Below, piece after piece: positions 12,908 through 13,974 of a stretch of 64,000 nt of DNA. Position numbers and translations under genes: made by a program. The DNA comes from a phage: the sequence record PZ452595.1. One strand, 5' to 3'. Position 1 is the stretch's first letter. Each line of letters begins with the position of its first letter. The notes under the pieces are model-generated. The model worked only from the letters and a program-made list of their open reading frames with translations, was not told the DNA's origin and did not search any database.

Positions 12908-13768
12908 TTATACCGCCATCTTTCCTTTAATTGGCGGGTGAGATACATAGTCGTTAAGAACAAAATTATGCGGCTTTGCGAATTGACTCAACCAAAATAC
13001 CTGTGATTCTGTGTCCCATTCATCAAATTCATCTGGGAATTTTAATTGTAATTCGCATAAATCCATAGGTTCACGACGCAAAATTTCTTTACATTGTTCT
13101 ACGTGATTCATATAGATATGAGTATTACCGCCAGAAAATATCAAATCTCCCGGAATAAGATTACATATCTTAGCTACAATATGAACTAACGCAGCATATG
13201 ATGCAATATTAAATGGAAGACCGAGGAAAACATCTACTGATCGTTGATACCACTGAAGGTCAAGGTATCCATTACGAACATTAAATTGATAGAACATATG
13301 ACAAGGTGGTAATGCCATCTGCTTGAGTTCAGCTGGATTCCATGCTGAAACAATTTGACGCCTATCATTTGGCAGTTTTTTAATACGATCAATAACTTCT
13401 ATAATTTGGTCTACACCACCAAAATCACGCCACTGTTTTCCATAAATTGGACCAAGTTCACCGCTATGGTATCCTAAATCTTTTGCTTGATTTTCGTAAT
13501 TTTCATCCCAAACTGTTTTGCCTTGGATTAACGAATCATGTTGAATTAATCGCAAATCATTGACATTTGTGCTTCCCGATAAAAACCATATTAGCTCAGC
13601 AATGCAAGCTTTCCAGGCGAGCTTCTTAGTTGTTACTGCAGGAAAACCTTTAGTTAAATCCCAGCGTAATTTAGTACCGAACAAAGCAATTGTTCCTGTG
13701 CCTGTTCGGTCATCGGTTTCGTAGCCATTTTCCAGGATATCTTTAATTAAAAATTGGTATTGTTTCAT
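12908..13768 (-). CDS. td: thymidylate synthase, intronless
   Basis: ATG at 13768 gives [26 protein letters not shown]... (286 aa), continuous; active-site region [11 protein letters not shown] present; track start 13780 is a TTG. Confidence 0.95.
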
Positions 13769-13974
13769 TAGTTCATCCAAGAATATGTAGAAGGATATTT
13801 GGCAAAGTTAGGCTTATATCCTAATTTAACCATTTGTTTTGCTTTGCGAGTAAATCCTAAAGAACGCTCACCTTTAAGATATTGTTTTGGTGTCATAGGC
13901 CCTTGATGCATCTGCCGACAAATAAAAAGGGCCATAGCATTAGGAACATCCTTAACTTTTAATTTATTGCTCAT
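13768..13974 (-). CDS. small basic hypothetical protein inserted between frd and td
   Basis: 68 aa ([17 protein letters not shown]...), ATG start overlapping frd stop (ATGA) and stop overlapping td ATG (TAATG). Confidence 0.5.

Follow-up and report, generated by a model that had tools for sequence, protein, structure and literature searches.

In phage T4 (NC_000866), the dihydrofolate reductase gene frd and the thymidylate synthase gene td overlap by 4 nt in an ATGA stop/start motif, an arrangement known from the T4 sequence and the sequencing literature of the 1980s. Comparative work on the T4 superfamily describes plastic regions in which small accessory ORFs are shuffled between genomes in a modular fashion. 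Here we compare this junction with its counterpart in a 64,000-nt stretch of phage DNA (sequence record PZ452595.1; hereafter the window), where a small basic ORF that we call ORF68 lies between the two genes.

Results

A small basic ORF overlaps both frd and td

ORF68 occupies the junction between frd and td (Table 1), and both coordinates and sequence agree with the original prediction, made from the sequence alone, of a 68-aa basic ORF that overlaps frd through ATGA and td through TAATG. The frd stop codon (TGA, 13973..13971) shares bases with the ORF68 start codon (ATG, 13974..13972), and the ORF68 stop codon (TAA, 13770..13768) and the td start codon (ATG, 13768..13766) have base A13768 in common. 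ORF68 has no possible longer form, because an in-frame TAA abuts its ATG on the upstream side. The encoded protein contains 13 lysine and arginine residues and two aspartate and glutamate residues, with a net charge of +11 and a pI of 10.26.

As had been claimed, the ORF is absent from T4: a three-way alignment of the junction places exactly 204 nt more in the window than in T4, and the 3' end of frd is identical in the two up to and including the ATGA motif. The overlaps recur in related phages. In Enterobacter phage CIP9 and Serratia phage 4S, the gene before ORF68 (family phrog_1928, described below) ends in a stop codon that overlaps the ORF68 start as ATGA. JS98, Marfa and 4S share the TAATG overlap between ORF68 and td; in CIP9, which uses a GTG start, it reads GTGA. 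The overlap with td is kept in all five of the five Straboviridae lineages compared. The stop/start overlaps by which we recognize a translationally coupled operon gene are present in the window and conserved in JS98, Marfa, CIP9 and 4S.

Table 1 Features of the frd-td junction in the window.
Feature	Coordinates	Strand	Basis
ORF68, 68-aa basic protein, family phrog_9550	13974..13768, stop included	-	ORF list, sequence, PHROG match
frd, dihydrofolate reductase, 193 aa	14552..13971	-	annotated as frd in near-identical phages
td, thymidylate synthase, 286 aa, intron-less	13768..12908	-	sequence
ATGA overlap, frd stop / ORF68 start	13971..13974	-	sequence
TAATG overlap, ORF68 stop / td start	13766..13770	-	sequence
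First 60 nt of td, Dhakavirus-type	13709..13768	-	mismatch counts, alignment

ORF68 belongs to a catalogued phage protein family

The original prediction found no family for ORF68. That stands for Pfam, NCBIfam and PADLOC, none of which returned a match, but not for PHROG, where the protein matches phrog_9550 (labelled 'unknown function') with E=1.3e-45, residues 1-68 aligning to positions 1-68 of the 68-position profile. The same family holds all 22 of the 22 ORF68 relatives that we aligned, which share length, charge and motifs and, in the Straboviridae, also the position upstream of td. Across these 22 members the net charge runs from +7 to +16 and the pI from 9.75 to 10.56.

A tblastn search with ORF68 recovered 238 phage records. 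About 135 of these are at least 95% identical in amino acid sequence and come from Tequatrovirus phages of E. coli, Shigella and Yersinia and from the Dhakaviruses JS98 and JS10. Identity falls to ~80% in Marfa-like Klebsiella phages, 68% in CIP9 and 60% in 4S; a further 72 records lie below 60%, and all of those sampled are Phapecoctavirus (phAPEC8-like) at ~43%. Full-length phrog_9550 members thus span Tequatrovirus, Dhakavirus, Marfavirus, Kanagawavirus, Serratia phage 4S and Phapecoctavirus. When 1.84 billion representative proteins were searched exhaustively with a profile, only ten further true relatives came up (70-96 aa), all metagenomic and none fused to another domain, and the most distant members of the family, at ~34% identity, come from unrelated phages. 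One other hit, the 1402-aa protein P0025, is repetitive and matched only locally over a short span, and we discarded it as a chance match.

The finding that the original prediction named as refuting it applies to annotated T-even-type genomes, which already carry ORF68 as a feature at this junction, although the classical phages T2 and T4 lack it. The identical 68-aa protein is present in NCBI and UniRef as a 'hypothetical protein', with occurrences on 332 contigs, and many Tequatrovirus records in GenBank and RefSeq annotate a hypothetical protein at the junction (for example Sf21, fFiEco06, SHFML-26 and fPS-65). Because it is catalogued in well over 100 T4-like phage genomes, ORF68 is an ordinary, already catalogued accessory gene and not a new one. 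Searches by PHROG id, ORF name, protein accessions and topic returned no publications about it.

Annotation of the gene is uneven, and ORF68 should be called as the real gene it is. The RefSeq entry for JS98 (NC_010105; L001:2501-2707) omits it and leaves a gap of ~200 nt between frd and td, and for JS10 frd alone is listed under the ORF68 match. Two GenBank records misname the product, as 'DUF4858' in vB_EcoM_Shinka and as 'flagellar biosynthesis protein' in PYPS2T. We rejected the DUF4858 identity: a Pfam scan to E 10 was empty, and no member of the family matches. Nor did any of the family scans point to a function in flagella.

The frd-td junction exists in three states

With the T4 junction as query against all phage records, we took a spread sample of 60 rows and sorted them according to how long a span was matched. 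Among ~58 informative rows, ~41 carry an insert of ~417 nt, 10 carry the 204 nt of ORF68, and seven are empty, three of these seven being T4 itself or T4 fragments. The direct frd/td overlap of T4, against which ORF68 had been described, does exist, but it is a minority state in this sample and makes a poor baseline.

The ~417-nt insert, found in T2, RB6 and AR1, contains a free-standing 115-aa ORF ('RB32ORF229c'; AR1_242) of family phrog_1928. This ORF lies at L017:1822-2169 in T2, the site equivalent to 13768-13974 of the window; it has no Pfam match, 363 records contain it with at least 90% identity, and one BASEL record names it 'putative homing endonuclease'. In Marfa, CIP9 and 4S the gene order is frd, phrog_1928 in one or two copies (two in CIP9), ORF68 and td; ORF68 and phrog_1928 can therefore coexist. 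We also considered the pair as a two-gene module and rejected the idea, as the more distant homologues of ORF68, in phAPEC8 and on two metagenomic contigs (L015 and L016), do not neighbour phrog_1928, nor td or frd.

At this junction the T4 reference appears to have lost an insert by deletion: AAATGAA repeats flank the T2 insert, and the 5' end of T4 td is of the T2 type. The empty T4 junction (…TATAAATGAAACAATACC…; L006:6110-6113) is the product expected if the T2-type insert (L017:1795-2225) were deleted between those repeats.

Dhakavirus is likewise polymorphic: JS98 and JS10 carry ORF68, and the junction of IME08 (NC_014260; L022:896-905) is empty, reading …ACAAATGAAACAATACC…. Overlaps between annotated features suggest that the junctions of Bp7 and QL01 are empty like that of IME08; FB and UP19 probably carry ORF68. 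Separately, frd of IME08 is annotated at 801 nt, with a long 5' extension over frd.1, which looks like a start-codon miscall.

ORF68 is lacking in T4, T2, AR1 and IME08. Among the classical phages, T2 and T4 were checked directly, and for T6 the absence is taken from an annotation note in AR1. We regard ORF68 with high confidence as a dispensable accessory gene and as one of three alleles of this junction in Tequatrovirus.

Selection on ORF68 points to a protein-coding gene

The length of ORF68 is in itself weak evidence of coding, because the window contains 114 ATG-initiated ORFs of at least 68 aa (7-20 in shuffled sequences). We therefore rely on its pattern of substitution. Comparisons with Marfa, CIP9 and 4S gave dN/dS values of 0.08-0.19 by the Nei-Gojobori method (0.08-0.28 overall), with dS near 1 or saturated in these comparisons, and synonymous changes are in significant excess (Fisher p from 5e-8 to 3e-6). 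Conservation among relatives with mostly synonymous change makes ORF68 almost certainly a genuine small protein-coding gene; the low dN/dS and the conservation of the family bear out the earlier reading of it as truly coding.

The same substitutions, concentrated at synonymous sites, argue against the idea that the 204 nt serve td as an RNA or regulatory DNA element and encode no protein. The predicted RNA fold of the ORF68 nucleotides is no better than that of shuffled sequences (z = -0.06), Rfam returned no family, introns included, anywhere in the window, and no promoter- or terminator-like site was found inside ORF68. We found nothing in support of such an element and consider it extremely improbable.

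A further possibility is that ORF68 is functionless: what is left of a decaying mobile element, for instance a homing-endonuclease gene, or a stretch that serves only to carry ribosomes on from frd into td. The region from frd through td to nrd is rich in homing endonuclease genes, with I-TevI, mobE and segG in T4, and the endonuclease name given to the alternative occupant of the junction in one record fits this idea. A frameshifted copy of ORF68 also fits: on an 8.6-kb IMG/VR contig (IMGVR_UViG_2938479101_000007; L014:863-1097), the reading frame breaks after about residue 30 and continues in a second frame, which points either to decay of the gene or to an error in sequencing. Strong purifying selection along the full length of ORF68, however, largely refutes the absence of function, and conservation of phrog_9550 down to ~34% identity in unrelated phages weighs in the same direction. 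Descent from a GIY-YIG or HNH homing endonuclease was rejected specifically, as no Pfam nuclease or DNA-binding domain is present in the ORF68 family, and a permissive profile search across all ORFs of the window, of T4 and of the other loci recovered orthologues only and no relation to endonucleases. At 68 aa, the protein is also far below homing endonuclease sizes (T4 mobE, 141 aa; I-TevI, 245 aa). We judge a functionless ORF68 very unlikely.

ORF68 was very probably imported together with the 5' end of td

Compared with JS98, the window is 98.6% identical in nucleotide sequence over ORF68 (three differences in 207 nt), against 77.3% over frd and 76.6% over td. The near-identical tract begins no more than 6 nt from the ORF68 ATG and extends into td, and it is the longest and most highly identical island shared with JS98 in the 5-kb locus. 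Over nucleotides 1-60, td of the window differs from JS98 and IME08 at 0-2 positions and from T4 and T2 at 8-9; over nucleotides 61-120 the relation inverts, with 1-4 mismatches to T2 and T4 and 8-10 to JS98 and IME08. This switch places a crossover between td nucleotides 60 and 63 (window 13709-13706).

IME08, whose junction is empty, has the same td 5' end as the window, recognizable by the N-terminal sequence QFLIKDIL, so this type appears to be native to Dhakavirus. The window-type td 5' end occurs at 95% identity or more in 119 records, and every row sampled from these has ORF68 upstream; in the sampled Tequatrovirus rows, the QFLIKDIL type is found only together with ORF68. The linkage is not absolute, since ECp13 bears ORF68 beside a td 5' end that is only 91% identical to that of the window.

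These comparisons indicate that in the window lineage ORF68 and the first 60 nt of td were very probably imported as a single cassette, and they make a Dhakavirus-like donor and a Tequatrovirus recipient the likely direction of transfer. The ORF is thus an insertion in this lineage, as originally described, but not a de novo addition, having arrived with a piece of td attached. Mechanistically, a Dhakavirus-like phage would have given a Tequatrovirus ORF68 plus 60 nt of td, by crossing over once at the AAATGA stop/start motif and once within conserved td sequence. Because the junctions with and without ORF68 differ exactly at short AATGA repeats, td would be coupled in either state.

In Marfa, CIP9 and 4S, amino acid identity to the window is 81, 69 and 62% for ORF68 and 73, 76 and 75% for td. 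ORF68 and td are thus diverging roughly in step in these phages, as expected of a gene that has long resided at the site in Marfavirus, Kanagawavirus and Serratia phage 4S.

Raised identity to JS98 recurs in a second patch at window positions 15460-15760, over a small minus-strand ORF (15467..15760), with 84-96% identity against 58-81% in the flanking aligned stretches. The AR1 counterpart of this ORF, AR1_247, is annotated 'best matched to JS98', and the patch may mark a further small cassette that passed between Dhakavirus and Tequatrovirus.

The wider region lacks the mobile elements of T4

Across window positions 1-25000, and especially 8800-19000, the mobile elements that T4 carries in this region are absent, and td has neither intron nor I-TevI. 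The window is collinear with AR1, in which the nrdA-nrdB interval has no mobE and the interval from gene 59 to gene 32 no segG. A 9-kb deletion that the comparison with AR1 seemed to show was produced by a match to a 54-nt repeat. The closest relative over the 801-nt query spanning frd, ORF68 and td is vB_EcoM_Maryam (99.6% identical), which has a td split by an endonuclease-bearing intron and a segG-like gene. We therefore dropped the notion that ORF68 and the td intron exclude each other, as vB_EcoM_Maryam has both. At the 3' end of td, near the nrdA.2 boundary, window positions 12928-13066 do not align to AR1 by megablast, and the flanks are 94-97% identical; this may be another mosaic breakpoint.

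Predicted fold and candidate functions of the ORF68 protein

An AlphaFold 2 model of ORF68 (pLDDT 82, pTM 0.61) contains short helices at residues 13-24, 29-38 and 43-49. The three-helix core has no structural match to known helix-turn-helix or homeodomain-like domains, and searches of Pfam, NCBIfam, PADLOC and PDB sequences, with the single sequence and with profiles, gave no meaningful named relative; against the PADLOC models, no family was returned to E 10. A K-L-K-V-K-D-V-P-helix motif that is invariant in the family suggested a resemblance to ribbon-helix-helix repressors. Comparison of the family with an alignment of the ribbon-helix-helix (Arc/MetJ/CopG) proteins by hhalign gave a probability of 0.04% and a score of 5.9, no different from column-shuffled controls (6.9-12.9); leave-one-out controls with true ribbon-helix-helix proteins scored 15-43, and we had compared the Arc and CopG sequences with their PDB entries. 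We rejected this assignment. The only property that holds robustly across the family is its strong positive charge. Our best, though tentative, guess is that the protein may bind a polyanion, whether nucleic acid or the acidic surface of a protein.

The position of ORF68 raises the idea that it is a partner of Td, Frd or the dNTP-synthesizing complex, made in fixed proportion through translational coupling and serving to modulate enzyme activity, assembly or tethering to DNA. ORF68 lies directly upstream of td and overlaps it in each of the Straboviridae lineages that we compared, and it stays beside td even where other genes part it from frd; ORF68 and the td 5' end are also co-inherited. Yet homologues in Phapecoctavirus and on two metagenomic contigs lie away from td and frd, and T4, T2, AR1 and IME08 manage without the gene. 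The QFLIKDIL N-terminus of Td, moreover, accompanies ORF68 in Tequatrovirus but is absent beside ORF68 in Marfa, CIP9 and 4S, which argues for hitch-hiking over co-adaptation. Because its relatives in unrelated phages are unlinked to td, ORF68 is probably not a dedicated thymidylate synthase partner, and a role in any of these complexes seems to us distinctly unlikely.

The surroundings of the distant homologues bring in a different candidate, a counter-defence or host-takeover inhibitor of a specific host protein, kept or lost according to the hosts met. The phAPEC8 homologue sits within a ~24-kb block of ~70 small hypothetical genes with annotated putative host-dependent promoters, and the two metagenomic relatives lie in similar small-gene arrays, one of them with a Tad2-like gene nearby. 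Patchy presence within two genera and recent horizontal transfer are consistent with such a role, as is the small size of the protein; many phage inhibitor proteins are small. On the other side, ORF68 resembles no characterized protein, and its strongly basic character is unlike that of the acidic DNA mimics, many known DNA-mimic anti-defence proteins being acidic. The negative PADLOC result does not bear on this role, because PADLOC holds defence and not anti-defence proteins. Overall, we consider a specific inhibitor doubtful.

Discussion

We favour an account in which ORF68 is a coding, translationally coupled, dispensable and imported gene for an early accessory protein, and we give this account as a whole a probability of roughly 70%. 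We are highly confident, at the least, in four of its parts, namely coding status, coupling geometry, the accessory allele and the imported cassette, the direction of transfer aside. In this account ORF68 rides in the early nucleotide-metabolism operon, using the overlap of frd stop and ATG that T4 gives to td, and its own stop/start overlap would hand translation on to td. The product is predicted to be a compact, very basic helical protein without recognizable fold relatives, and it would act early in infection as a non-essential host-takeover or fitness factor. Nothing in our findings suggests an unusual mechanism.

To the original prediction, our analysis adds a junction with three alleles in which T4 is in the minority, a bounded import from a Dhakavirus-like source, and the exclusion of several functional assignments. 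The T4 reference is atypical here; in most of its relatives frd and td are separated by a small gene, drawn from two unrelated families. The succession of Tequatrovirus frd, ORF68 with 60 nt of Dhakavirus-type td, and Tequatrovirus td offers a clean example of a small exchange between genera within a core operon.

Set against described systems, the window copy shows nothing distinctive within its own family, being 100% identical to deposited proteins of many phages; other phrog_9550 members include gp177 of Klebsiella phage Marfa (YP_009850431.1), gp059 of Enterobacter phage CIP9 and gp235 of phAPEC8 (YP_007348396.1). With T4 the junction shares the frd 3' end and the ATGA motif, but T4 has no gene between frd and td, and ORF68 takes the place that td occupies there. 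The T2-type phrog_1928 ORF, the commonest state in Tequatrovirus, is like ORF68 a dispensable gene at the same junction; it differs in belonging to an unrelated sequence family and, in T2, in standing free, with spacers of 20 and 45 nt and no overlaps. As in the modular shuffling of T4-type genomes, a small ORF has been swapped between genera as a discrete, sharp-edged unit. Elsewhere, such shuffling involves promoter or stem-loop cassettes between early genes, whereas the boundaries of ORF68 are a stop/start overlap and a conserved stretch of td, inside an operon of core genes.
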